A DNA stretch of 64,000 nt from Clostridia bacterium. GTDB taxonomy: Bacteria > Bacillota > Clostridia > RUG12999. The stretch spans positions 211-64,210 of the forward strand of contig JAAWTG010000007.1 of the NCBI GenBank assembly GCA_022801925.1, written 5' to 3'. Of this stretch, positions 12,349 through 43,792 are shown piece after piece; within the stretch, counting starts at the first letter, position 1, and each line of letters begins with the position of its first letter. The position numbers were made by a program, and so were the translations under genes. Under the pieces are notes generated by a model, which saw nothing but the letters and a program-made list of their open reading frames with translations, did no database searches and was not told where the DNA came from.

Positions 12349-15171
12349 ATGTCTTTTGACAAAATTACGATTCAGGGTGCGAGGGAGCACAATTTAAAAA
12401 ACATAGATATTGAAGTGCCGCGGGAAAAATTGGTGGTGTTCACCGGACTTTCCGGTTCGGGAAAGTCGTCTCTGGCATTTGATACGATATATGCGGAAGG
12501 ACAACGGCGGTATGTGGAATCGCTGTCCGCTTATGCGCGGCAGTTTTTGGGACAGATGGAAAAACCAGATGTGGACTACATTGAAGGGCTTTCACCCGCC
12601 ATTTCCATTGACCAGAAAACCACCAGCAAAAATCCGCGTTCCACTGTGGGAACCGTGACGGAAATATATGACTATATGCGTTTGATGTACGCGCGTATCG
12701 GTGTGCCGCACTGTCCCAAATGCGGTGTTGAAATTCAGCAGCAGACCATTGACCAGATTTGCGACCAAGTGCTTGCGTTTGAGGAAGGAACGCGGATGCT
12801 GATTTTGGCGCCTGTGATTCGCGCCAAAAAAGGGCAGCATCAAAAAGTGCTGGAAACGGCAAAGAAAAACGGATATGTCCGCGTGCGTGTGGATGGGGAA
12901 ATGCGGGAACTGGAGGAAGAAATCAACTTAGAAAAAACGAAAAAGCACGATATTGATATTGTGGTAGATCGCCTGATTATTCGCCCGGGCGTGGAAACGC
13001 GTTTGACGGATTCTTTGGAAACAGCGTTGGGGCTGGCAGGCGGATTGGCATATGTCAGCATTGTGGACGGCGAGGAAATTTTGTTTAGTCAAAACTATGC
13101 GTGCAGCATTTGCGGCATGAGCATTGAAGAACTGTCGCCGCGTATGTTCTCGTTTAACAGCCCCTATGGCGCGTGTCCGACCTGTGCAGGGCTGGGTATG
13201 ATGATGAAAATAGACCCGGAACTGGTTTTGGATAAGAAAAAATCAATCCGTCAGGGCGGCATTTTAGCAAGCGGCTGGGGCAATGTGGGGGACGAAAATT
13301 CCCTTGCGGCAATGTATTTCGGCGCATTGGCAAAAGAATATGATTTCAGCCTTGACACGCCGATTGCACAGCTGCCGCAAAATGTCATGGATGTTATTTT
13401 ATACGGCAGCAAGGGTAAAAAAATGCAGTTTGAGTATAAGCGTTCCTTTGGCAGCACTTCCTATATGGGGACGTTTGAAGGCATTGTGAACAATCTGGAG
13501 CGCCGCTATACGGAAACACAATCCGATTATGCCAAAGCGGAAATTGAAAACTATATGAGCAATATTCACTGCCCAGACTGTCACGGAAAGCGACTGAAAC
13601 CGGAAGTGTTAGCGGTGACGGTCGGCGGCAAAAATATTGAAGAACTGACCTCTTTGTCCATTGTGAAAATCATGGAGTTTTTGGAACAGTTGGAATTAAC
13701 ACCCAAACAAGAACAAATTGCGTACCAGATTTTGAAAGAAATCAAAGCGCGGCTGGGATTTTTAGTGAATGTCGGACTGGATTACCTGACGTTGTCGCGC
13801 AGCGCCGGAACACTGTCCGGCGGGGAAGCGCAGCGGATTCGTTTGGCAACACAGATTGGCTCCGGTTTGATGGGCGTATTATATATTTTGGACGAACCCA
13901 GCATTGGGCTGCATCAGCGGGACAATGACCGTCTGCTGGAGGCGCTGAAACATTTGCGTGATTTGGGAAACACGCTGATTGTGGTGGAACATGATGAAGA
14001 TACCATGTATGCCGCCGATTGGATTGTGGATATTGGTCCGGGCGCGGGCATTCACGGCGGCGAAGTCGTGGCACAGGGAACGGTGGAAGACATCAAAGCG
14101 TGCGGGAACTCCATTACCGGTCAATATTTAAGCGGAACAAAGAAAATTGAAGTGCCGGCGCAGCGGCGTGGCGGGAACGGAAATGTGCTGACGGTGCGCG
14201 GAGCGGCGGAAAACAATTTGAAAAAAATTGATGTGGATTTTCCGCTGGGGACATTCATTGCAGTGACGGGCGTTTCAGGAAGCGGAAAAAGTTCGCTGAT
14301 TAACGAGATTTTGTATAAAATTTTGGCAACGGAACTCAATGGCGCGCGCAAACGCCCAGGCGCATATGATGAAATTGTCGGGCTGGAATATACCGACAAA
14401 GTGATTAACATTGACCAATCTCCCATCGGACGCACACCGCGTTCCAATCCGGCGACCTATACCGGCGTATTTTCCGATATCCGTGATTTGTTCGCAAGCA
14501 CCACAGACGCAAAAGCGCGCGGATATAAATCGGGACGTTTTAGCTTTAACATCAAGGGCGGACGCTGTGAGGCGTGCAGCGGAGACGGGATCAATAAAAT
14601 TGAAATGCATTTTCTGCCGGATATTTATGTTCCTTGCGAAGTTTGTAAAGGACAGCGGTATAACCGTGAAACGCTGGAAGTGCGTTATAAGGGCAAAAAT
14701 ATCAGTGAAGTGCTGAATATGACGGTAGATGAAGCGGTGGAATTCTTTGAAAATATCCCTAAAATCCACCGTAAAATTCAAACACTTTCCGAAGTGGGAC
14801 TGGGTTATATTAAACTGGGGCAAAGTTCCACTACGTTGTCTGGCGGGGAAGCGCAGCGTGTGAAACTGGCAACGGAACTGTCCAAACGTCCTACCGGAAA
14901 AACCGTCTATATTTTGGACGAGCCGACAACAGGGCTGCATACGGCGGACGTCCACAAACTGATTACGGTTTTGCAAAAATTTGTGGACAGCGGCAATACG
15001 GTCATTGTGATTGAACATAATCTGGACGTCATTAAAACCGCGGATTGGCTTATTGACCTCGGACCGGAGGGCGGCGACCGCGGTGGAAAAATTGTGGCAG
15101 CAGGGACGCCGGAAACCGTTGCAAAAGCAAAGGGCTCGTATACAGGAAAATATTTGAAAAAATACTTGTAA
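12349..15171 (+). CDS. uvrA: Excinuclease ABC subunit A
   Basis: [14 protein letters not shown], two ABC modules ([18 protein letters not shown], 2x LSGGEAQR) and Zn-finger Cys pairs. Confidence 0.97.
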
Positions 15172-26939: not shown

Positions 26940-27200
26940 TTAACTCAATCTGGTATATTCATAACCTTTTTCCGTTTCTGTTTCTTGATAAACGCCTTTG
27001 ATGCGGACGTCCATACGCCGTGCCTCTTGATATAAGAAATTTAAGCAGTTATAAGAAGTCCGCAGACTGTAGCCGCAGCCGCCGATAGCAAGGTGCTTGG
27101 GCGTTTGTATCACATAGGAAGAAAAGCCTTTGTCTGCCAGAGATTTTTTTAGCCGCAGAGCGGTTGTTGCTGATGAAAGTAAAACAATAACTTGGAACAT
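26940..27200 (-). CDS. DUF3343-like small protein (putative Se/S carrier family)
   Basis: 86 aa. ...ALRLKKSLADKGFSSYVIQTPKHLAIGGCGYSL pattern, and genomic pairing with a cysteine-desulfurase-like gene. Confidence 0.65.
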   Translation of the reverse strand: MFQVIVLLSSATTALRLKKSLADKGFSSYVIQTPKHLAIGGCGYSLRTSYNCLNFLYQEARRMDVRIKGVYQETETEKGYEYTRLS

Positions 27201-27548
27201 CTTTCAAAACCTCTCTTGTTTTCAGGATTCATAGTTGTTAGATCCCCTGTTATTATGATATGTGCTATAGTCGTTTTCGTGTGTATATTTTCTGGTTAGG
27301 CAAATAAAAATAAAAAATGGTGCGATTGCACAGGAAAAAAATGAAATTGTATACAAAAAATATAGAAAAGTAACAAAGTGTAAACAAAATAGAAAAGAAA
27401 ATAGCACTAAAAAGTAACGTTTAATAGATGATAAAATTATGAAAAATGAATAAGTTAGAAAAAGGGAGATTTATTGAGAATGAGTGAATTTGATGGGTTT
27501 AGATTAAAAAAAGAAACTAAATTGGTTGAAAATGAACAATAATCAGTG

Positions 27549-27577
27549 TTGAAAAAAGAAAATATCTCGTGTATAAT
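27549..27577 (+). promoter_or_regulatory. Sigma-A-like promoter candidate inside the block
   Basis: TTGAAA (27549-27554), a 17-nt spacer, then TATAAT (27572-27577). Confidence 0.35.
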
Positions 27578-27949
27578 AAAACCATAAGATACAGAGAAAC
27601 AAAATCTGAATCTTAAATTGTAAAAAGGAGGTGTCTCCGTTGGCATAAGATAAACGGGTCGTTTCAAAAATTGAAAAATAGAATTACTGCAAATCTTTCC
27701 TATATGGAAAGGTAAAAATGAAATTCATTCCTGAATGAAATAGAAACACAAAGGGGATGGCAGTTATGAAAATAGGCTGCGAACTTTTTCGTCAGAAAAA
27801 ATAGAAGAAAGAGGAGAGTCCCATGTACAATGTAAGATAAAACATTATTTCAAAGTTGAATGAAGAAAGAGTTTGTTGTAAGAATGAACTGGCAGAAAGG
27901 TGATTCCGTTGGGATAGCGTAGTAAAAAATATAACAAATGAAAATACGG

Positions 27950-27978
27950 TTGCATGACTCATTTATATATATTATAAA
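27950..27978 (+). promoter_or_regulatory. Second sigma-A-like promoter candidate inside the block
   Basis: TTGCAT (27950-27955), a 17-nt spacer, then TATAAA (27973-27978). It lies about 25 nt upstream of AGGAGG plus ATG 28003. Confidence 0.35.
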
Positions 27979-28591
27979 AAAGGGTATCAGGAGGCGGCAG
28001 AGATGATTGAACCAATCAGGCAGGCCGTTGCAAATACCAAAATAAATTTTTGATGAAAATAATAGTATGAATGAAGAAAAGCAGGGAAGCATTGGTCTTT
28101 CCATTGTATTCAAATTGTCCCTTGGAAAATAAAATAATAATTAAAATTTATTGTGGCTATTTGTGATGGCAAACAATGAATATTTGCAGTGAAACTCTAT
28201 TCAAAAAAATTCAGAGAAACTGCTTTGGCAGTTAGACTGAATGATCCTTCCAAAGTGAAACGATATCGTGGATCATCAGAGTGATATCATGGATGCTAAG
28301 TCAATAAAGACCACAGCGGAGTGATAGGAACGGAAGATGAAAAGAACAAGTTGAAAAACGGAAAAACATCACAAAGACAGAGCGATTGAAAAAAAGCGGA
28401 ATATATGCAGAATAAAAGCGCTGGCATATATTTTGCGAATAGAAGCTAAATTTGATGATGAAGAGAAAAGTTTAAACAAACAACAAGGTTCGGGAAAAGA
28501 AAGCCTGCAAGAGGGAATTTGGAAAATAGAATTGCAGGACTTAAGGAGGATTTTTAGACGTTGAATGAACTAAACAACGAGGAAAGTATAT

Positions 28592-28638
28592 AAACCGCAC
28601 TTACTTTTGGAAACAAAGTAAGTGCGGTTTATTTTTTT
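28592..28638 (+). terminator. Strong plus-strand intrinsic terminator closing the block
   Basis: 16-bp stem aaaccgcacttacttt / aaagtaagtgcggttt with a 7-nt loop, followed by aTTTTTTT. Confidence 0.9.
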
Positions 28639-28739
28639 ATAAATGCAGTCCTTTTCTCCGCCAAACCGTCATAAAACAGGAGTTGTCCTAATATAATGTG
28701 ATACAGAGAAAATTTAGGACAAGGAGGACAAATGACAAC

Positions 28740-32127: not shown

Positions 32128-32904
32128 TTATACCTTACATACGGCATCTTTCATGGATTTGACATATGCGGCGACCGGCTGCTGGCTGTCTTTTCCGTGC
32201 TGCTCCACAAGTTTCACAATCGCGCTGCCCACAATTGTGCCGTCCGCTTTTTGTGCCATTTCCTGCGCCTGCTGCGGTGTGGAAATGCCGAATCCAACGG
32301 CGCAGGGAACCTGAGACACTTCTTTTGCCGCGGCAACCATGGAAGCGATATCAGACTTGATTTCGCTGCGCACGCCCGTCACCCCCATGGAGGAGACAAT
32401 ATATAAAAAGCCTTCTGCCTCTTTAGCAATCATGCGAATCCGCTCATGGGAAGTGGGCGCGATAAGGGAAATCAAAGATATGCCATAGGTGTGACAAACG
32501 CCTGATATTTCGCCTTTTTCTTCATAAGGCAGGTCGGGAATGATAACGCCCGAAATACCCGTTTCCTGACACTGCCGCATGAATTTTTCCGCGCCGTATA
32601 CCACAATGGGATTGATGTAGGTCAAAAAGACCAGCGGCACATGGACGTCGCCGTTTAAGCTGCGCAGCATATCGAATATGCGGTCAATGGTGCAGCCTGC
32701 TGCCAGTGCGCGTTCATTAGCGCGCTGAATCACCACGCCTTCCGCGACAGGGTCGGAGAAGGGGACGCCCAGTTCAATCAAATCTGCGCCCGCTTCCTGC
32801 ATGGCTAAAATGAGTTCGCGCGTGGTATCTAAATCAGGGTCGCCCGCTGTGACAAAGGGAATAAATGCTTTGCCGTTTTCAAATGCTTTTTTGATATCAG
32901 TCAT
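32128..32904 (-). CDS. trpA: Tryptophan synthase alpha chain
   Basis: [24 protein letters not shown], and last position in the trp operon. Confidence 0.95.
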
Positions 32905-34081
32905 AGAGATTCACCCCCCTGTATCTTGCGATGGCGGCAACATCTTTGTCGCCGCGGCCGGATATGTTAATCACGATAATTTCGTCCTGTTTCATGGTAG
33001 GTGCGAGTTTCCTTGCATAAGCGACTGCGTGTGCGCTTTCTATTGCCGGAATGATACCCTCCGTGCGCGAGAGATATTCAAACGCGGAAACCGCTTCTTC
33101 GTCCGTAATGGGAACATAATTGGCGCGCCCCGATTCAAACAGCATGGCGTGTTCCGGCCCAATGCCCGGATAGTCTAAACCGGCGGAAATGGAATAGACC
33201 GGCGCGATTTGCCCGTCGCTGTCCTGACAGAAATAGGATTTCATGCCGTGGAAAATCCCAACGCTGCCATTTGCGATTGTGGCGGCATTTTCAGGTGTGT
33301 CAACGCCTCGTCCCGCTGCTTCGCAGCCAATGAGTTGCACCTCTTTGTCGCCGATAAATTCATAGAATGCCCCCATGGCATTGCTACCACCGCCAACGCA
33401 GGCAATCACTGCACTGGGCAGCCGTCCTTCTACGGCATAGAGCTGTTCTTTGATTTCCTTACCAATCACTTTTTGAAAATCGCGGACAATGGTCGGGAAC
33501 GGATGCGGCCCCATCACAGACCCCAAAACATAGTGTGTGTCTGAAATGCGCGCCGTCCATTCGCGCAGCGTCTCATTGACCGCATCTTTCAAGGTTTGGG
33601 TGCCGCTGGTGACGGCGTGTACCTTCGCACCCAGCAATTCCATGCGAAAGACGTTGAGCGCCTGACGGTCTGTGTCCTCTTTGCCCATGAAAATTTCGCA
33701 TTCCATGCCCATCAGGGCCGCTGCTGTTGCCGTTGCTACGCCGTGCTGTCCTGCGCCTGTTTCCGCAATCACGCGGGTTTTCCCCATCTTTTTTGCCAAA
33801 AGTACCTGTCCCAGTACGTTGTTGATTTTATGGGAGCCGGTATGGTTTAAATCCTCGCGTTTCAAATATATTTTTGCGCCGCCGAGGTCTTGCGTCATTT
33901 TCTCTGCATAGTAGAGCAGAGAGGGGCGACCTGCATAATTTCGGAGCAAGTCGTCCAATTCTGCACAAAATGCAGCATCGTTTTTATAGTGGTTATAAGC
34001 TTCTTCCAGTTCAATGACGGCATTCATCAATGTTTCAGGGATATACTGCCCGCCATAAGTACCAAATCTACCGTTGTTCAT
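32897..34081 (-). CDS. trpB: Tryptophan synthase beta chain
   Basis: [24 protein letters not shown] (PLP Lys), GGGSNAMG. Confidence 0.97.
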
Positions 34082-34697
34082 GGGAATCTCCTTCCTTTAC
34101 TTTTTCTATAAAGTTTTTGATTTTTTCATAATCTTTTACGCCACCTGTCTCCACGCCGCTGGACACATCTACGGCATAGGGACGACAAAAACGGAAAACG
34201 TCTCCGGCATTGTCGGGTGATAAACCGCCTGCTAAAAAATAGGGCTTGGAAATGGCGGGAATCATAGACCAATCAAATGCGGTTCCACTGCCGCCCATTT
34301 GCCCTTGTGTGAATGTGTCCAGCAGCAGATAGTCGCAGGGAAGCCGGTCGCACTGCAAAATTTGTGCGGCGGACTGCACGCGCACTGCCTTGATGACAGG
34401 AAGCGTACAGTGTGCTTTGATTGCCAGAATATCCGCTTCCGTTTCGTGACCGTGAAGCTGTATGACGTCAATCGCGCCGCTTTGTGCAATGTTTAGCAGT
34501 TCCTGTATTGGCATATCGACAAATACGCCGACAGATTGTATCGCAGGGTGCAAACCGTGTCTCAGGGTGATTGCCTGTGCGGGCGTGATTTGCCGGCGGC
34601 TGGGCGCGAACACAAATCCAATATAATCAGGACGGAGTTGATTGACTATATCAATATCCTCCTGCCGCCGCAGTCCGCAGATTTTAATTTTGGTCAT
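34068..34697 (-). CDS. trpF: Phosphoribosylanthranilate isomerase
   Basis: [25 protein letters not shown], and operon position. Confidence 0.92.
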
Positions 34698-35481
34698 GCG
34701 CTTCTCCTCCCAGCAGCATTTTTAGCATTGCGCCTTTATCTGCCGCGCGCATGAGGGTTTCGCCAATCAACGCCGCGCCGATATCTGCTTTGCGCAGCGC
34801 GGCAACATCGGAGGCTGTCTGAATGCCGCTTTCGGCAATGAGCAGTAGTTCCGGCGGAACCATGCGGCGCAGGGTTGCAGTGGTGTTGATATCCACATGA
34901 AAGGTTTTTAGATTGCGGTTGTTAATGCCGATAAAACGCGCACCCGCCGCCAAAGCAGATTCAATTTCTGCTTCGTTATGGGTTTCCACCAAGGCGGAAA
35001 GCCCCAAACTGTGCGCAATCTCAAGATATTCTTTCAATGTTTCGGTGTCCAGCAGGGCGCAGATAAGCAACACACAATCGGCGCCGAGCACTTTTGCTTC
35101 GTATATTTGATAGGGGTCAACCGTAAAATCTTTGCGCAGCAAGGGGAGAGAGACGGCGGCACGGATTTCTGTTAAATAGTTGTCACTGCCCAAAAAGAAT
35201 TCCGGTTCCGTTAAAACGGAAATTGCAGCCGCACCGGCGTTCTCATATTCCTTTGCGATATCGACATAGGGAAAATGTTCCGCAATCACACCTTTGGACG
35301 GCGACGCTTTTTTTACCTCGCAGACAAAGGAAAAATCGTCACTTTGCAGCGCGCGCTCAAAACGAAAGGGGGCGGCAGTGGAAATGGATTCTGCCTGCGC
35401 ACGGATTTCGGAAAATGGAATGTTTGCTTTGGCAGTTTCCACACGCCTGCGTGTGGAAACTGCAATGGTATCCAGAATCAT
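34684..35481 (-). CDS. trpC: Indole-3-glycerol phosphate synthase
   Basis: FVCEVKKASPSKG, LRKDF, INNRNL. Confidence 0.94.
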   Translation of the reverse strand: MILDTIAVSTRRRVETAKANIPFSEIRAQAESISTAAPFRFERALQSDDFSFVCEVKKASPSKGVIAEHFPYVDIAKEYENAGAAAISVLTEPEFFLGSDNYLTEIRAAVSLPLLRKDFTVDPYQIYEAKVLGADCVLLICALLDTETLKEYLEIAHSLGLSALVETHNEAEIESALAAGARFIGINNRNLKTFHVDINTTATLRRMVPPELLLIAESGIQTASDVAALRKADIGAALIGETLMRAADKGAMLKMLLGGEAHDQN

Positions 35482-36491
35482 GCGACCACCTCATTTGTCA
35501 TTGTCACAAAATCGTTTAACTTTTGTTTTGCTTTGCCGCTGTCAATCAGTTCGGCGGCATATTGTACACATTCTTGCAGCGTCAGGCTTGACGCCATGGA
35601 TAGGCAAGCCGCCGCATTGAGTAGCACAACATTGCGTTTAAATCCTTTTTTACCGTCTAAGATTTCCAGGGCAATTTGTGCATTTTCAGCAGGATTACCG
35701 CCAACTAAGTCGGCGGGTGTGCAAAGTTCAAAACCGAATTGCTGTGGGTCAAACGTAAACGTGTTGCAGCGTCCGTTTTTCACTTCGCAAACGGTGGAGG
35801 GAACGCAGAGAGAAATCTCATCAAGACCGTCTCGGCCGTGTACTGCCATAGCGCGTTTGACGCCGAGGTTCGCCAGTACCTTTGCCAGCGGTTCGACCAG
35901 ATTTTCATCATAAACGCCGAGCAATTGCAGATTTGCACCGGCGGGATTAGCGAGAGGACCCAGAATGTTAAAAATCGTCCGTGCTTTGATTTCTTTTCGC
36001 ACCGGAGCCGCATATTTCATGGAAGCGTGATAGGTAGGTGCAAACATGAAACAAATATTCAGTGTGTCCAGCACCTTTTTATTTTGTGCGGCGTCTAAGT
36101 CGATTTTCACACCCAGCGCTTCCAATAAGTCGGCGCTTCCGCATTTGCTTGATACACTGCGGTTGCCGTGCTTGGCAACTGGAATGCCTGCCGCTGCCAC
36201 AACGAAGGAAGCAACCGTGGAGATGTTGAACGTATTTGCCTCATCGCCACCGGTGCCTACAATATCCATCACATCGCGGTTTGGCGTTAATTTCGTGCAG
36301 TGCTTACGCATCACTTTGGCACAGGCGGTGATTTCCTGTGTGGTTTCACCTTTTATCCGCAGCGCTGTGAGATAGGAACCCATCTGTGCATTGGTGGCTT
36401 CGCCGCTCATGATTTCGTCCATAACGGTTTCCGCCATCTCAAAAGATAAATTATTTCCGTTCATTAATTCGTGGATTGCTTCTACAATCAT
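35478..36491 (-). CDS. trpD: Anthranilate phosphoribosyltransferase
   Basis: DIVGTGGDEANTFNIST, KHGNRSVSSKCGSAD. Confidence 0.95.
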   Translation of the reverse strand: MIVEAIHELMNGNNLSFEMAETVMDEIMSGEATNAQMGSYLTALRIKGETTQEITACAKVMRKHCTKLTPNRDVMDIVGTGGDEANTFNISTVASFVVAAAGIPVAKHGNRSVSSKCGSADLLEALGVKIDLDAAQNKKVLDTLNICFMFAPTYHASMKYAAPVRKEIKARTIFNILGPLANPAGANLQLLGVYDENLVEPLAKVLANLGVKRAMAVHGRDGLDEISLCVPSTVCEVKNGRCNTFTFDPQQFGFELCTPADLVGGNPAENAQIALEILDGKKGFKRNVVLLNAAACLSMASSLTLQECVQYAAELIDSGKAKQKLNDFVTMTNEVVA

Positions 36492-37069
36492 TTTATTTTA
36501 CCTCCAATACGCAAAAAGTTTTTTAAAATCGCAGTGCCGTTGCTGGTTAAAATAGACTCCGGGTGAAATTGCAGGCCATACATGTCGCAGTCCTTGTGTT
36601 TCACTGCCATCACTTCGCCGGAATCATCTTGTGCAATAATTTGCAGCTGCGGCGGTATTGTTTCGCGCAGCGCAACAAGAGAATGGTATCGTGCGCCGCG
36701 TATCACAGGGGGAAGCCCCTCAAACAGTTCGCAGTCGTGCGTGATATGGATATCGCTGGATTTTCCGTGAATCAATTGTTTTGCCAGCGATACCGTCGCG
36801 CCGCATACTTCACAAATTGCTTGATGACCTAAGCAAATTCCTAAAATAGGAAGTTTTCCCTGATACATTCGTATCACATCTTCGCAGATACCGGCGTCTG
36901 CCGGTTTGCCCGGCCCAGGAGAAAGAATCAGATGGGAAACGTCCATGGAAGCGATATCCGCGGCGGTAATCGCATCGTTGCGCACCACCTGAATATCAGG
37001 ATAAAGCGCACCGACCATTTGCACCAAATTATAGGAAAAACTGTCGTAGTTATCAATCAATAAAATCAT
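36488..37069 (-). CDS. trpG: Anthranilate synthase component II (glutamine amidotransferase)
   Basis: ILLIDNYDSFSYNL, GICLGHQ, FHPES. The start is set at ATG 37069, forming an ATGA overlap with the trpE stop. Confidence 0.93.
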   Translation of the reverse strand: MILLIDNYDSFSYNLVQMVGALYPDIQVVRNDAITAADIASMDVSHLILSPGPGKPADAGICEDVIRMYQGKLPILGICLGHQAICEVCGATVSLAKQLIHGKSSDIHITHDCELFEGLPPVIRGARYHSLVALRETIPPQLQIIAQDDSGEVMAVKHKDCDMYGLQFHPESILTSNGTAILKNFLRIGGKIK

Positions 37070-38529
37070 TTTTTCGTCACCTCGCTTGCACATTGGATTG
37101 CCAATTTTGCGGCAAGAGATTTGTTTTCGCTTTCGATATATTCTGTTTCCGGTACGCTGTCCGCCACAATACCGCCGCCCGCCTGCACGGTGACGGTGCC
37201 GCCGCGTTTGACCGCAGTACGAATGGTGATACAGGTGTCCAGATTGCCTGAAAAGTCAATATATCCGATTGCGCCGCCATAGATACCGCGTGCATCCGGC
37301 TCCAGTTCATCAATGATTTCGCAGGCGCGGATTTTGGGAGCGCCGGAAAGCGTACCTGCCGGCAGCAGCGCCGCAATGGTGTCACATGCATCATAGGGAG
37401 CGCGGATTTTACTTTCTACAGTGGAGGTGATGTGCATAATGCGTGAAAAACGGTTGATTTTCATATATTCCTTCACACCAACTGACCCGAATTCAGAAAT
37501 TTTCCCGAGGTCATTGCGCGCCAAGTCTACCAGCATGTTGTGTTCCGCAAGTTCTTTTTCGTCTTGCAAAAGTTCTTCCTCCAAACGGCGGTCTTCCTCT
37601 TCTGTTGCGCCGCGCGGACGGGAACCGGCGATAGGGTAGGTATAGAGTATTCCGTCCGTTAATTTTACCAATGTTTCCGGCGAGGTGCCGGTGATTTCAA
37701 TGTTGTTGCTGTGCAGGAAATACATGTAGGGCGAAGGATTGGTGGTGCGCAGCACACGATAGGCGCTCAGCAGACTGGCGTCATAGGGCGCTTCAAATTT
37801 ACGCGAAATCACCGCCTGAAAAATATCGCCCTGCCGGATATATTCCTTCGTTTTTTCCACCATAGCGCAATATTGTTCTTTGGAAACATTGCAGGTGAAC
37901 GACACGTTTTCCGGAACTTGTTCCTCCGGTAGCGGCGCGGTATCCAGAATCAGCATTTCTATTTCGTCCAAGGCGCGATAGGCGTCTTGCAGTCCGGATT
38001 CGCCTTTTGCAGTCTCCATATTGGCAATAAGATAAATCTTTTGTTTCAGATGGTCATAGGCAATGATTTTGTCAAACAACATCAGTTCCATGTCGTAAAC
38101 ATCGCTTTTTTGAAGCTTCAGTTTTGGTTCCGCATATTGAATAGATTCATAGGAAAAATAACCGACGAATCCGCCCGTGAACGGCGGTAAATCCTCAAAA
38201 CGCGGACTGGTGTAGTCTTTTAGGATAGTGCGGAGAATCTCATAAGGATTACCCTGAAAAGATTGTTTTGCCGCGCCTTCGCGCTGAAGCGTGATGTGAT
38301 TGCCTTTGCTGGTGAAGCGAACGGTGGGGTCATAGCCGAGAAAGGAGTAGCGCCCCCACTTTTCACCGCCTTCGACACTTTCCAGTAAATAATAGCAATG
38401 GCTGTGCAATGCAAGTTTGCGCAGCAAGTTGATGGGGGTGATAACATCGGCATAGATGGTGTGGCAGACCGGAATCACCTTGTAGTTCTCCAGAAAGGGG
38501 GAGAGCTGTTCATAAGTTGGGTTTAACAT
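37066..38529 (-). CDS. trpE: Anthranilate synthase component I
   Basis: Chorismate-binding family C-terminal motifs (GTLSGAPKIRA, RGIYGGAIGY). AAAGGAGTG SD. Confidence 0.95.
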   Translation of the reverse strand: MLNPTYEQLSPFLENYKVIPVCHTIYADVITPINLLRKLALHSHCYYLLESVEGGEKWGRYSFLGYDPTVRFTSKGNHITLQREGAAKQSFQGNPYEILRTILKDYTSPRFEDLPPFTGGFVGYFSYESIQYAEPKLKLQKSDVYDMELMLFDKIIAYDHLKQKIYLIANMETAKGESGLQDAYRALDEIEMLILDTAPLPEEQVPENVSFTCNVSKEQYCAMVEKTKEYIRQGDIFQAVISRKFEAPYDASLLSAYRVLRTTNPSPYMYFLHSNNIEITGTSPETLVKLTDGILYTYPIAGSRPRGATEEEDRRLEEELLQDEKELAEHNMLVDLARNDLGKISEFGSVGVKEYMKINRFSRIMHITSTVESKIRAPYDACDTIAALLPAGTLSGAPKIRACEIIDELEPDARGIYGGAIGYIDFSGNLDTCITIRTAVKRGGTVTVQAGGGIVADSVPETEYIESENKSLAAKLAIQCASEVTKK

Positions 38530-38582: not shown

Positions 38583-38885
38583 TACAATAAAAAAAGCTTT
38601 TGTCCTAACAATAGGACAAAAGCTACATTGCTTCTGCGGTACCACCTAAATTGACGTTCTCTTTTGGCAAGAACGCCCACTCACATTACATACTATCATA
38701 TGCATCCCGGTGGTAACGGCTGGGAACCCCGTCAGCGCCTACTTGCTTTCAAAAACGTTCGGGCTGCCCTCACGAGTCCATTCGGCAAATTTCCGTTCCG
38801 CTGCTTTTCACCTGCCGCAGCTCTCTGCTGAAACTTCCCTTTGCTTACTTCTCTCGTTCAACGGTTTTTATTGTATTTTATTGTT
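38583..38885 (-). promoter_or_regulatory. T-box riboswitch leader with a Trp (UGG) specifier, controlling trpEGDCFBA
   Basis: The minus strand shows stem I GAGAGAAGUA...AGAGAG...GGUGAAA and the specifier loop GAAUGGA (UGG = 38780..38778). It also shows the T-box sequence AAUUUAGGUGGUACCGCAG (complement of ~38634-38652) and a terminator agcttttgtcct/aggacaaaagct followed by a run of 8 T. Confidence 0.9.
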
Positions 38886-42346: not shown

Positions 42347-43792
42347 TTATATAGAATGTTTGGATAATAATTCCTGTTTCATATTCCAAAGCGGACGGGA
42401 CAAATCCACATAATACCGGTGCGGATTTTCCAACCGCGTCACTTCATCCCAGAGTGTATCCACCTGCGCCGCACAATAAGACTGTACCTCCTGAATGGAG
42501 GGCGGCGTATAGACCGGATGGCCGTTTTCAAACAATTTTGTCAGCAAGGGTCGGGCGGTGAAATCCGTTATGGTTTTGCGTTTCCAGGTATGTTCCGGGT
42601 CAAAAATTTCATATGGTTTACCAGAGTCAATCACTTCATCATGTAGCGTGATAACGTCTGCAATGGCTTTGCCGCTTTCTTTCTCATAGAGGCGGTAGAG
42701 TTGTTTGAAGCCGGGATTGGTAATTTTCGCAACATTTTCGCTGAGTTTGATTTTCGGTGTGATGGTGCCGTCCGGTTCTTCTGTTGCGGTGAGTTTGTAA
42801 ACGCCGCCGAGCACCGGTTCGCTTTTGGAGGTAATCAGCCGTTCGCCCACGCCGAAAGAGTCCAGTTTCGCACCTTGTGTCAGCATGTCGCGAATAATAT
42901 ATTCATCAAGGGAATTGGAAGCAACAATCTTACAATCGGGATAACCGGCTTCGTCTAGCATTTTCCGGCATTTGCGGGAGAGATAGGTCAAATCGCCGCT
43001 GTCAATACGCACGCCCAGCGGACGGATACCAATGGGTTTTAAAATTTCATCAAAAGTGCGGATGGCATTGGGTATACCGCTTTTGAGCACATTGTAGGTA
43101 TCCACCAGCAACACGCAATTGGTGGGATATTTTTGTGCGTAAGCGCGGAACGCTTCGAGTTCGCTGGGGAACATCTGCACCCAACTATGCGCCATGGTAC
43201 CTGCTGCCGGAATGCCGCAGTCCTTGTCGGTAATCGTGCAGGAGGTGGAAGTACAACCTGCAATATAGGCGGCGCGGGAACCATACATTGCCGCACTGTA
43301 GCCCTGTGCCCGCCGTGCGCCAAATTCCATGACGGGACGCCCATCCGCTGCGCGGACAATGCGGTTTGCTTTGGTTGCGATAAGGCTTTGATGATTCACT
43401 GTGAGCAGAATCATGGTCTCCAAAAGCTGCGCCTGTACAATGGGACCGCGCACAATGACGAGCGGCTCGCCCGGAAATACCGGCGTACCCTCCGGTACAG
43501 CCCAGACGTCGCAAGTGAATTTAAAATTTTTCAGATAGTCCAAAAATAATTCGCTGAACATCTGTTTGCTACGGAAATAAGCAATGTCATCTTCCGAAAA
43601 AGAGAAATTGTTTAAATATTCCATGAGCGGTTCCGTACCTGCCATAATTGCATATCCGCCATTATCGGGAATCGCGCGGAAATAGGTGTCGAAATAGGCA
43701 ATGCGGTCCTCCAGCCCGCTGGAGAAAAAGCCGTCCGCCATGGTGAATTCATAAAAATCTGCCAGCATGGACAAGTCAACGTGTTCAAACAT
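42347..43792 (-). CDS. pncB: Nicotinate phosphoribosyltransferase
   Basis: LSMLADFYEFTMA..., GTMAHSWVQ, and the RIDSGD region. The start is set at ATG 43792 (AAAGGAGG SD), not ORF-track 43912. Confidence 0.9.
   Translation of the reverse strand: MFEHVDLSMLADFYEFTMADGFFSSGLEDRIAYFDTYFRAIPDNGGYAIMAGTEPLMEYLNNFSFSEDDIAYFRSKQMFSELFLDYLKNFKFTCDVWAVPEGTPVFPGEPLVIVRGPIVQAQLLETMILLTVNHQSLIATKANRIVRAADGRPVMEFGARRAQGYSAAMYGSRAAYIAGCTSTSCTITDKDCGIPAAGTMAHSWVQMFPSELEAFRAYAQKYPTNCVLLVDTYNVLKSGIPNAIRTFDEILKPIGIRPLGVRIDSGDLTYLSRKCRKMLDEAGYPDCKIVASNSLDEYIIRDMLTQGAKLDSFGVGERLITSKSEPVLGGVYKLTATEEPDGTITPKIKLSENVAKITNPGFKQLYRLYEKESGKAIADVITLHDEVIDSGKPYEIFDPEHTWKRKTITDFTARPLLTKLFENGHPVYTPPSIQEVQSYCAAQVDTLWDEVTRLENPHRYYVDLSRPLWNMKQELLSKHSI

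Follow-up and report, generated by a model that had tools for sequence, protein, structure and literature searches.

What, if anything, is encoded at positions 27201–28640 of a 64,000-nucleotide stretch (the window) from a Clostridia bacterium (assembly GCA_022801925.1, contig JAAWTG010000007.1, positions 211–64,210), where about 1.4 kb of A-rich DNA holds no long open reading frame (ORF)? The original prediction, made from the letters of the window, left three answers side by side, namely a long noncoding RNA (ncRNA), an array of short ORFs (sORFs) and a decayed foreign gene. The comparative analysis described below supports the first of these, leaves the second weak at best and refutes the third. 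Conserved signals and substitution patterns suggest that the plus strand at 27584–28640 probably harbors a functional, stand-alone gene for a large structured ncRNA of ~1,055 nt. The element is best read as a new, lineage-restricted large structured ncRNA that matches no known RNA family. The left 350 nt of the interval (27201–27548) comprise a divergent promoter and a regulatory spacer and lie outside the RNA.

Composition and extent of the block

The block contains 606 A, 378 T, 297 G and 159 C, i.e., 31.7% G+C and 62.7% purine, compared with 46.0% and 53.4%, respectively, in the whole window. The hand counts with which its unusual composition had been argued were exact (A36 T10 G9 C5 at 27361–27420; A32 G15 C7 T6 at 28321–28380). 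In a sliding-window profile across the block, the G+C fraction stays between 0.24 and 0.39, and both GC skew and AT skew are strongly positive. When ORFs of at least 90 aa are considered, this is by far the largest ORF-free gap of the window, spanning 1795 nt, followed by gaps of 545, 448 and 430 nt. On the plus strand, the ORFs of the block all stay below 60 aa, and the longest stop-free stretch has 69 codons. The recurrence of short words in the block was also borne out by dinucleotide shuffles, with the reservation that these words were chosen post hoc: GAATGAA occurs five times (0.75 expected), AAAATAGAA four times (0.2 expected), and both TGAATGAAGAAA and GATATC[GA]TGGAT (at 28262 and 28283) occur twice, above the shuffled sequences.

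Distribution of the block among uncultured Clostridia

Homologs of the block were detected in five further lineages of uncultured Clostridia. These relatives were found by protein searches in metagenome assemblies with the ATPase and the cysteine desulfurase encoded on the two sides of the block. The closest of them (L104), with 95% identity of the marker ATPase, shows 90.6% identity to the window in the block, over the 3′ 830 nt only. It is followed by L092/L094 (ATPase, 90%; block, 77.7%), L102 (desulfurase, 76%; block, 68.7%, and 91% to L097), L096/L097 (ATPase, 74%; block, 68.5%) and L098/L099 (desulfurase, 83%; block, 68.0%), where the values for L092, L098 and L097/L102 were taken over 1,340–1,515 aligned bases. 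The comparisons described below use five full-length lineages, the window included, and the partial L104. In addition, an identical copy of the 86-aa protein encoded to the left of the block was found on ten contigs from other samples; seven of the ten span the whole interval at 98.9–100% identity and therefore represent strains of one species.

Outside this group the block was not detected. Among GTDB species representatives the best ATPase match is 54% identical, which is too distant, and blastn and tblastx comparisons of the block with 80 loci found via the ATPase in these genomes returned low-complexity noise only. When the selenium/sulfur (Se/S)-carrier protein, i.e., the 86-aa protein mentioned above, was used to scan JGI metagenome contigs, a single contig was returned. 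In two more distant loci, L103 and L108 (56% and 53% identical desulfurase), the gap preceding the Se/S-carrier gene measures just 151 and 106 nt, respectively, and the block is missing; for L103 its absence was confirmed by nhmmer. An nhmmer profile revealed no second copy of the block in the window or in the homologous loci searched. The element occurs in single copy and only within one clade of uncultured Clostridia, and its identities track the phylogeny of the flanking genes and hosts, which argues for vertical inheritance.

Two of the contigs have unusual junctions. In a JGI contig of the same species (L004, also L091), at positions 2560–2570, window position 27846 is joined to the reverse complement of window position 42361 across a 7-nt microhomology (aaacatt), which would correspond to a 14.5-kb inversion cutting the RNA in a variable linker. 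Ten other contigs that carry the L28 gene keep the NAPRTase–L28 arrangement of the window and lack this junction, which is therefore probably an assembly chimera or a rare inversion or variant; on the same grounds, we dropped the idea that it marks a dispensable or modular block. In L092/L093 (ENA contig_8597, 1.3 Mb), the last ~24 kb form a large inverted duplication (ATPase–MntP–trpA ... trpA–MntP–ATPase) with a sub-threshold MIR841 match at its center (13614–13817), which looks like a fold-back assembly artefact.

Selection without a conserved reading frame

At four-fold degenerate sites of four flanking genes, the window is 63% identical to L104, 43–57% to L092, 29–46% to L098 and 36–45% to L097/L102; these sites are near saturation. 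The block is about as conserved as the flanking protein-coding genes are overall (65–81% nucleotide identity), and in the closest comparison it is approximately four times less diverged than synonymous sites. An internal neutral control is provided by a 65-nt variable linker (27831–27895, plus strand), where 11% of the columns are invariant and the mean pairwise identity is 36%. Judging by these alignments, the block outside the linker is under purifying selection. Its conservation lies above the neutral rate, and it is therefore neither junk DNA nor a decaying pseudogene.

This conservation is not accompanied by a common protein-coding frame. No ORF common to the lineages was found, and in L092 the homologous block has nothing longer than 61 aa. 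The 69-codon frame (28355–28561), which had been thought to read like protein, is not conserved: in relatives, frameshifting indels and a deletion exceeding 20 nt disrupt it. The numbers of indels that are multiples of three are only 2–8 out of 11–27 per sequence pair, and TAA, TAG and TGA are all present in all six frames of the block. A 185-aa minus-strand ORF is called in L096/L097 and is absent in the other lineages; searched against 5.8 billion proteins, it found only itself, and since it has no homolog anywhere searched it is spurious. The longest frames of the block have no match in Pfam. Prompted by the selenium-related neighbor, we also considered read-through of UGA (as selenocysteine) or UAG, which opened no long frame.

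Predicted transcription unit

A sigma-A-type promoter, TTGAAA-17-TATAAT, is located on the plus strand at 27549–27577 and matches 11 of 12 consensus positions in a consensus scan, in agreement with the original prediction. The five lineages share the same two hexamers 17 nt apart, while the spacer sequence varies. At the other end, a plus-strand-only intrinsic terminator (28590–28632) consists of an 18–19-bp stem (18 bp in the window) and a T run, and is kept in all lineages with only G-U-compatible changes. The predicted RNA extends from 27584, as placed by the −10 box, to 28640, as placed by the terminator. Thus delimited by a promoter and a terminator of its own, both conserved on one strand as sequence motifs, the element has the organization expected of a structured ncRNA gene. 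The plus-strand transcription of ~1.06 kb that had been suggested between these two signals is consistent with their conservation, with purifying selection and with the conserved helices described below. A second promoter that had been proposed at 27950–27978 does not hold up: it fails the consensus scan, its −35 hexamer TTGCAT is replaced by TGGCAC in three other lineages and by TGACAT in L102, and it sits within a predicted helix.

Predicted secondary structure of the RNA

The consensus fold of the five full-length sequences obtained with RNAalifold contains 207 base pairs in 28 helices. The share of alignment cells that can pair is 93.6% in the predicted structure, compared with 38–46% when the 3′ partners are slid and 91.6% in shuffles. 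Twenty pairs have changed on both sides, compared with 10.5±2.0 in shuffles (none of the 500 reaches 20) and 3–6 with slid partners, a count that rests on about four independent lineages and on a structure taken from the same alignment. The consensus energy is −150.9 kcal/mol for the plus strand versus −111.4 kcal/mol for the minus strand, G-U pairs make up 12% of the paired cells, and single-sequence folds have z-scores of −3.5 and −8.6. Single-nucleotide polymorphisms within the species all fall at unpaired positions. Similarly, 54 of the 67 substitutions in L104 are at unpaired and 13 at paired positions, with ~37% of all positions being paired.

The predicted fold starts, a few nucleotides from the presumed 5′ end, with a terminal stem-loop (helix 1, 27585–27615) of 11 pairs, two of them compensatory. 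Further downstream, the strand at 27675–27697 (inverted repeat I3) pairs with 28179–28201 to form a long-range bipartite helix (helix 5) that encloses ~480 nt. This duplex is formed in all five lineages with energies of −10 to −18 kcal/mol, in L098 via a different sequence and with two compensatory pairs. Both local hairpins that had been noticed by eye are present, and the one at 27696–27711 is retained in the relatives via a compensatory change. Within the enclosed region, a three-way junction (helices 7–9, 27754–27822), in which GGGAU/GUCCC closes two hairpins, is 95–100% paired and almost invariant, and contains an apparent 12-codon ORF. The domain at 28024–28170 is closed by a 15-bp helix (helix 13, 28024–28038 with 28156–28170) and encloses helices 14–17. 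Helix 13 is 97% paired and has five one-sided changes among G-C, G-U and A-U; its G-U pairs would turn into A-C mismatches if the minus strand were folded, and both these pairs and the one-sided changes fit the plus strand only. Four compensatory pairs are found in helix 15.

Beyond the long-range helix, a hairpin domain (helices 19–22, 28274–28339) includes the second copy of GATATCATGGAT and shows six compensatory double-change pairs. The 3′ conserved region (28504–28578) combines helices 25 and 26, an AAGGAGG motif and a 10-codon ORF, and 74% of the columns between 28501 and 28640 are invariant. Overall, the best-supported elements of the fold are the 15-bp helix, the hairpin domain at 28274–28339, helix 15 and the long-range helix.

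Repeats are present within the RNA. The 19-nt direct repeat D1, AGGTGTCTCCGTTGGCATA / AGGTGATTCCGTTGGGATA, occurs at 27629–27647 and 27898–27916 with 84% identity, and both copies are kept in all lineages. In nearly every lineage, each copy is made up of a Shine-Dalgarno (SD)-like motif, TTG, a single codon and a stop; in L098, the second copy is read as four codons. Further repeats inside the RNA include GAAAATAGAATT at 27674 and 28522. These repeats suggest that the RNA may have grown by internal duplication.

Observations that weigh against an RNA gene, and competing interpretations

Several observations speak against a structured ncRNA. The transcript ends were derived from sequence motifs alone. 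With five full-length lineages and one partial, and with L097 and L102 being 91% identical, covariation has low statistical power; moreover, the structure was derived from the same alignment that was used to score the pairs, and many of the best-conserved helices are invariant, which makes them neutral as to pairing. With 33% G+C and 42% A against a genomic G+C content of 46%, the composition is more mRNA-like or intergenic than that of a typical ornate RNA. Moderate conservation (59%) extends to the spacer that precedes the promoter, so some of the conservation could reflect regulation at the DNA level, and one contig (L004) breaks the block at 27846. Finally, strong SD motifs are enriched two- to four-fold over shuffles (three GGAGG versus 0.9 expected; four to six AGGAG versus 1.6 expected), and combinations of an SD motif with a start codon number 12–23 versus ~7±3 expected, a two- to three-fold excess, which is unexpected for a purely structural RNA.

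This last group of observations leads to the alternative that survives best, a multi-sORF or "minigene" transcript. According to this explanation, the RNA is mRNA-like and functions in translation initiation at six or seven conserved SD-plus-start sites, its structure being secondary, with either micropeptides of 2–19 residues or ribosome loading, stalling or sequestration as the outcome. Indeed, the most conserved islands have an SD-like motif followed, 4–11 nt on, by a conserved start codon within the island and a very short ORF. Seven aligned positions have such a combination in four or more lineages, and six of these positions have it in every one of the five. The first island (27625–27650), AAGGAGGTGTYTCCG-TTG-GCA-TAR, with a strong SD, a TTG start, one codon and a stop, is nearly invariant in the five lineages. 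Its start at ~27641 would give MA*, and the further starts are at ~27768 (12 codons), ~27823 (MY..), ~27909 (MG* or ME*), ~28003 and 28007 (two overlapping starts within 27985–28035, with 5–20 codons) and ~28560 (MNELN(N/I)EESI*). The last of these ORFs has accumulated three apparently synonymous changes (GAA/GAG twice, CTA/TTA once). The purine-rich composition is mRNA-like as well, and Bacillus subtilis provides a precedent in yrzI, a polycistronic operon for small peptides (PMC12067863).

The substitution patterns within these ORFs nevertheless make the explanation unlikely. The variation of the 12-codon ORF falls on the first and second codon positions; its third positions and its Cys, Leu and Phe codons are invariant. 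This pattern is the reverse of coding and fits the hairpin GCAG.../...CUGC. The ORF at 27998 (start ~28003) shifts frame in L097 and L102, and the nucleotides of GCCGTTGCAAATA stay conserved regardless of the reading frame because they form one strand of the 15-bp helix. The spacers between SD and start match the SD motifs in their degree of conservation, functional peptides cannot be encoded by two-codon ORFs, and ~900 nt of conserved sequence lie outside any sORF. In such A-rich RNA, a stop occurs approximately every 11 codons, so short ORFs are expected after any start. The conservation of frame and length and the coding-type substitutions expected of a small-ORF operon were not observed: the other ORFs have 2–7 codons and variable length, and the 10-codon ORF at 28560 is too short to judge. 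Most likely, the SD-like sites are mainly G-rich helix strands in an A-rich RNA, and they may additionally serve as binding sites for the 30S subunit or 16S rRNA in the manner of the STAB-SD elements discussed below. The conserved SD-plus-start sites can be taken as a hint of contact with ribosomes.

Slightly less probable than the sORF transcript, in our assessment, is conserved regulatory DNA and/or several short independent RNAs in place of one 1-kb RNA, e.g., an extended control region of the divergent Se/S-carrier operon with one or two small RNAs. It is favored by the 59% conservation of the untranscribed spacer (27291–27548) with its palindromes, by the nearly unconstrained linker (27831–27895) that divides the block and where the L004 contig breaks exactly, and by the invariance, hence unproven pairing, of most long-range helices. 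Against it, the block has a single conserved promoter at one end and a single conserved terminator at the other, and the sole other terminator-like site (28084–28102) is weak and is replaced by a different, larger hairpin in other lineages. The long-range helix 27675–27697/28179–28201 spans the linker and has compensatory change in L098, the L004 junction is not seen in the ten other contigs of the species, and the strand-specific G-U pairs together with the energy difference between plus and minus strands favor constraint on RNA over constraint on DNA.

The remaining proposal, a decayed gene or what is left of inserted foreign DNA (a dead mobile element or a pseudogene that no longer has a function), draws on the low G+C content relative to the flanks, on the protein-like 69-codon frame and on the genes found beyond the terminator in L096, L097 and L102 (GH2, and AraC in L096/L097), which show that the locus accepts insertions, but it is highly improbable given that the block is 68–91% identical where synonymous sites are 29–63% identical, that its identities follow the host phylogeny, and that no conserved frame, indels in threes, Pfam match, homolog of the 185-aa ORF or tblastx hit beyond low-complexity noise speaks for a protein.

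Several specific identities were rejected. Known Rfam families, including OLE, GOLLD, ROOL, HEARO, raiA, group I/II introns, riboswitches and T-box, have no match in the block: at the gathering scores of Rfam 15, the only match in the window is a T-box at 38609–38870 and there is none in the five homologous loci, and permissive searches of the window and these loci (E-values up to 5–10) added only generic hairpin models on the terminator. A remnant of a mobile element, prophage or plasmid can be discarded because the block has no meaningful match in phage, plasmid and viral collections, is single-copy and follows the host phylogeny; two of its conserved motifs were also absent from viral contigs in motif scans. 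An oriC-like region is not supported, as no TTATCCACA-like DnaA box (at most one mismatch) is present in 27201–28640 and the cumulative GC skew rises monotonically. Finally, a CsrB-like sponge was rejected because GGA is not enriched over shuffles (22–31 observed versus 20–23 expected).

Comparison with known systems and possible mechanism

The closest known kind of RNA is that of the large orphan RNAs OLE, GOLLD and ROOL, and the element is outside all of those families. These large "ornate" bacterial ncRNAs are ~600–800 nt long (PMC12286853, PMC9723947). Like them, the element is predicted from its sequence to be a stand-alone large ncRNA of Bacillota with conserved sequence and secondary structure, many highly conserved unpaired stretches and a multi-domain fold closed by long-range helices. 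Unlike them, it is longer (~1,055 nt) and A-rich with 33% G+C, carries strong SD-plus-start sites, has no cmscan similarity to these families even at E-values up to 10, and is found in one narrow clade of five or six lineages, whereas they occur in hundreds of species. It also differs from GOLLD and ROOL in not being phage-associated and from OLE in lacking oapA-type neighbors.

A second parallel is provided by the STAB-SD of cry3A, an SD that does not direct translation and instead binds the 30S subunit/16S rRNA and blocks RNase J1 (PMC4113751, PMC5737220). STAB-SD or ribosome-protected 5′ regions of Firmicute RNAs are exemplified by cry3A and hbs. The element resembles them in having strong SD-like sequences, up to AAGGAGGTG, with no real gene downstream, and in the location of its first SD ~45 nt from the presumed 5′ end, after a 5′ hairpin. 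It differs in having six or seven such sites, most of them predicted to be partly base-paired, along a 1-kb RNA without a coding region, whereas a STAB-SD is a single site in the leader of a protein-coding mRNA.

Regarding the short ORFs, the element recalls the yrzI/spyTA operon of B. subtilis and the minigenes of phage lambda in having several very short ORFs, each with a preceding SD. The bar minigenes of phage lambda consist of two codons, and two of the ORFs of the element are likewise units of a start, one codon and a stop. The yrzI peptides have tens of residues and are conserved as proteins, whereas the ORFs of the element have 2–19 codons, vary in length and frame, and show a noncoding substitution pattern. 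With the CsrB/RsmZ sponges, the element has in common repeated purine-rich, GGA-containing motifs that resemble ribosome-binding sites. It departs from them in that GGA is not enriched, the motifs are not repeated hairpin-loop units, and the RNA is three to ten times longer; Csr sponge RNAs are not known from Bacillota.

Taken as a structured ncRNA, the transcript would fold into several domains tied together by the long-range helices 27675–27697/28179–28201 and 28024–28038/28156–28170, and would be stabilized by the 5′-terminal hairpin and the 3′ terminator hairpin. Acting in trans, it would serve proteins or ribosomes as a scaffold or ligand and be neither protein-coding nor a leader of a neighboring gene. 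The six or seven SD-like islands may bind the 30S subunit or 16S rRNA and thereby protect or occupy the RNA, as a STAB-SD does. A scaffold or ribonucleoprotein role is favored over regulation by base pairing because the RNA is long and multi-domain and has many conserved single-stranded stretches; as a specific mechanism, we put it forward tentatively, at somewhat less than even odds. A far bolder idea, which we consider improbable, is that the element is the founding member of a new class of ncRNAs of more than 1 kb that engage the translation machinery. In that case, its six or seven conserved SD-plus-start sites, two of them of the start-codon-stop kind, would capture 30S/70S ribosomes or initiator tRNA. 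As a ribosome sponge or an array of minigenes, the RNA would adjust the capacity for translation or the growth state; its gene would be the divergent partner of an operon for sulfur/selenium trafficking, and the two might be regulated together.

Genomic context and flanking regions

The left neighbors of the block, on the minus strand, encode the 86-aa Se/S-carrier-like protein (PF11823) and a protein assigned by Pfam to class-V aminotransferases or cysteine desulfurases, and the right neighbors, on the plus strand, encode a P-type Ca-ATPase and MntP, so that the block lies between divergent genes. For the operon of the Se/S carrier and the cysteine desulfurase, the leftmost part of the block (27201–27290, minus strand) supplies the 5′ untranslated region, the ribosome-binding site and probably the promoter region. 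The complement of CCTCTCT at 27210–27216, AGAGAGG, is located just upstream of the ATG at 27200, and 46% of the columns of this segment are invariant across the five lineages. The next segment (27291–27548), with a mean pairwise identity of 59%, is the spacer between the two divergent promoters. It contains a conserved perfect palindrome, TTGTATACAA (27347–27356), and a conserved inverted repeat, TTATGAA-AAA-TGAATAA (27437–27453), which reads TTATGCAAT(A/G)TGAATAA in the relatives. Both could serve as candidate operators common to the RNA gene and the Se/S-carrier/cysteine desulfurase operon.

The possibility that the block is a cis-acting leader or riboswitch of the downstream Ca-ATPase was ruled out, since it is not kept directly upstream of that gene in relatives (three loci, two lineages). 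The ATPase has its own promoter and 5′ untranslated region at 28661–28739 (plus strand), outside the RNA, and in L096/L097 (85% identity) and L095 (83%) the promoter segment (window positions 28668–28727) still immediately precedes the ATPase gene. In L096/L097, the block lies ~3.4 kb from the ATPase, with GH2 (on the opposite strand) and AraC genes in between, and in L096, L097 and L102 the terminator of the block adjoins the convergent GH2 gene. The GH2 glycoside hydrolase/AraC region covers 3374–7789 in L096, 2156–6571 in L097 and 718–3108 in L102, with AraC in L096 and L097 only. With these genes between the block and an ATPase that has its own promoter, the block is not an ATPase leader; the element is independent of the Ca-ATPase. 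Its only constant neighbor is the divergent Se/S-carrier and desulfurase operon.

Other insertions were observed between the terminator of the RNA and the ATPase promoter. In L092 (7526–7922; the same in L094, 476–876), a 397-nt insert with 46% G+C carries its own TTGCAA-17-TATAAT and a GC-rich, structured-looking segment, and in L104 (826–1001) a different AT-rich insert of ~175 nt occupies the same spot. Neither insert has a match in Rfam; the one in L092 might represent a further small RNA or else a leader of the ATPase that resembles a riboswitch. The T-box mentioned above (38609–38870, minus strand) scores 112 bits, above the gathering score, and precedes the trp operon (~32128–38529, minus strand); it is an ordinary known element.

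Significance

Apart from rRNA, bacterial ncRNAs of more than ~500 nt are very rare, and the known large classes, OLE, GOLLD and ROOL, have unusual biology as membrane ribonucleoproteins or RNA-only multimers. The narrow distribution of the element in one clade of uncultured Clostridia is a weakness of the finding, as it limits both statistical support and experimental access. Its A-rich, low-G+C composition is atypical, and such an RNA would therefore be missed by searches for G+C-rich intergenic regions. If its transcription is confirmed, this ORF-less conserved 1-kb RNA would be among the longest orphan bacterial RNAs. Its combination of conserved helices with strong sites resembling ribosome-binding sites connects a large RNA with the ribosome in a way that can be tested.

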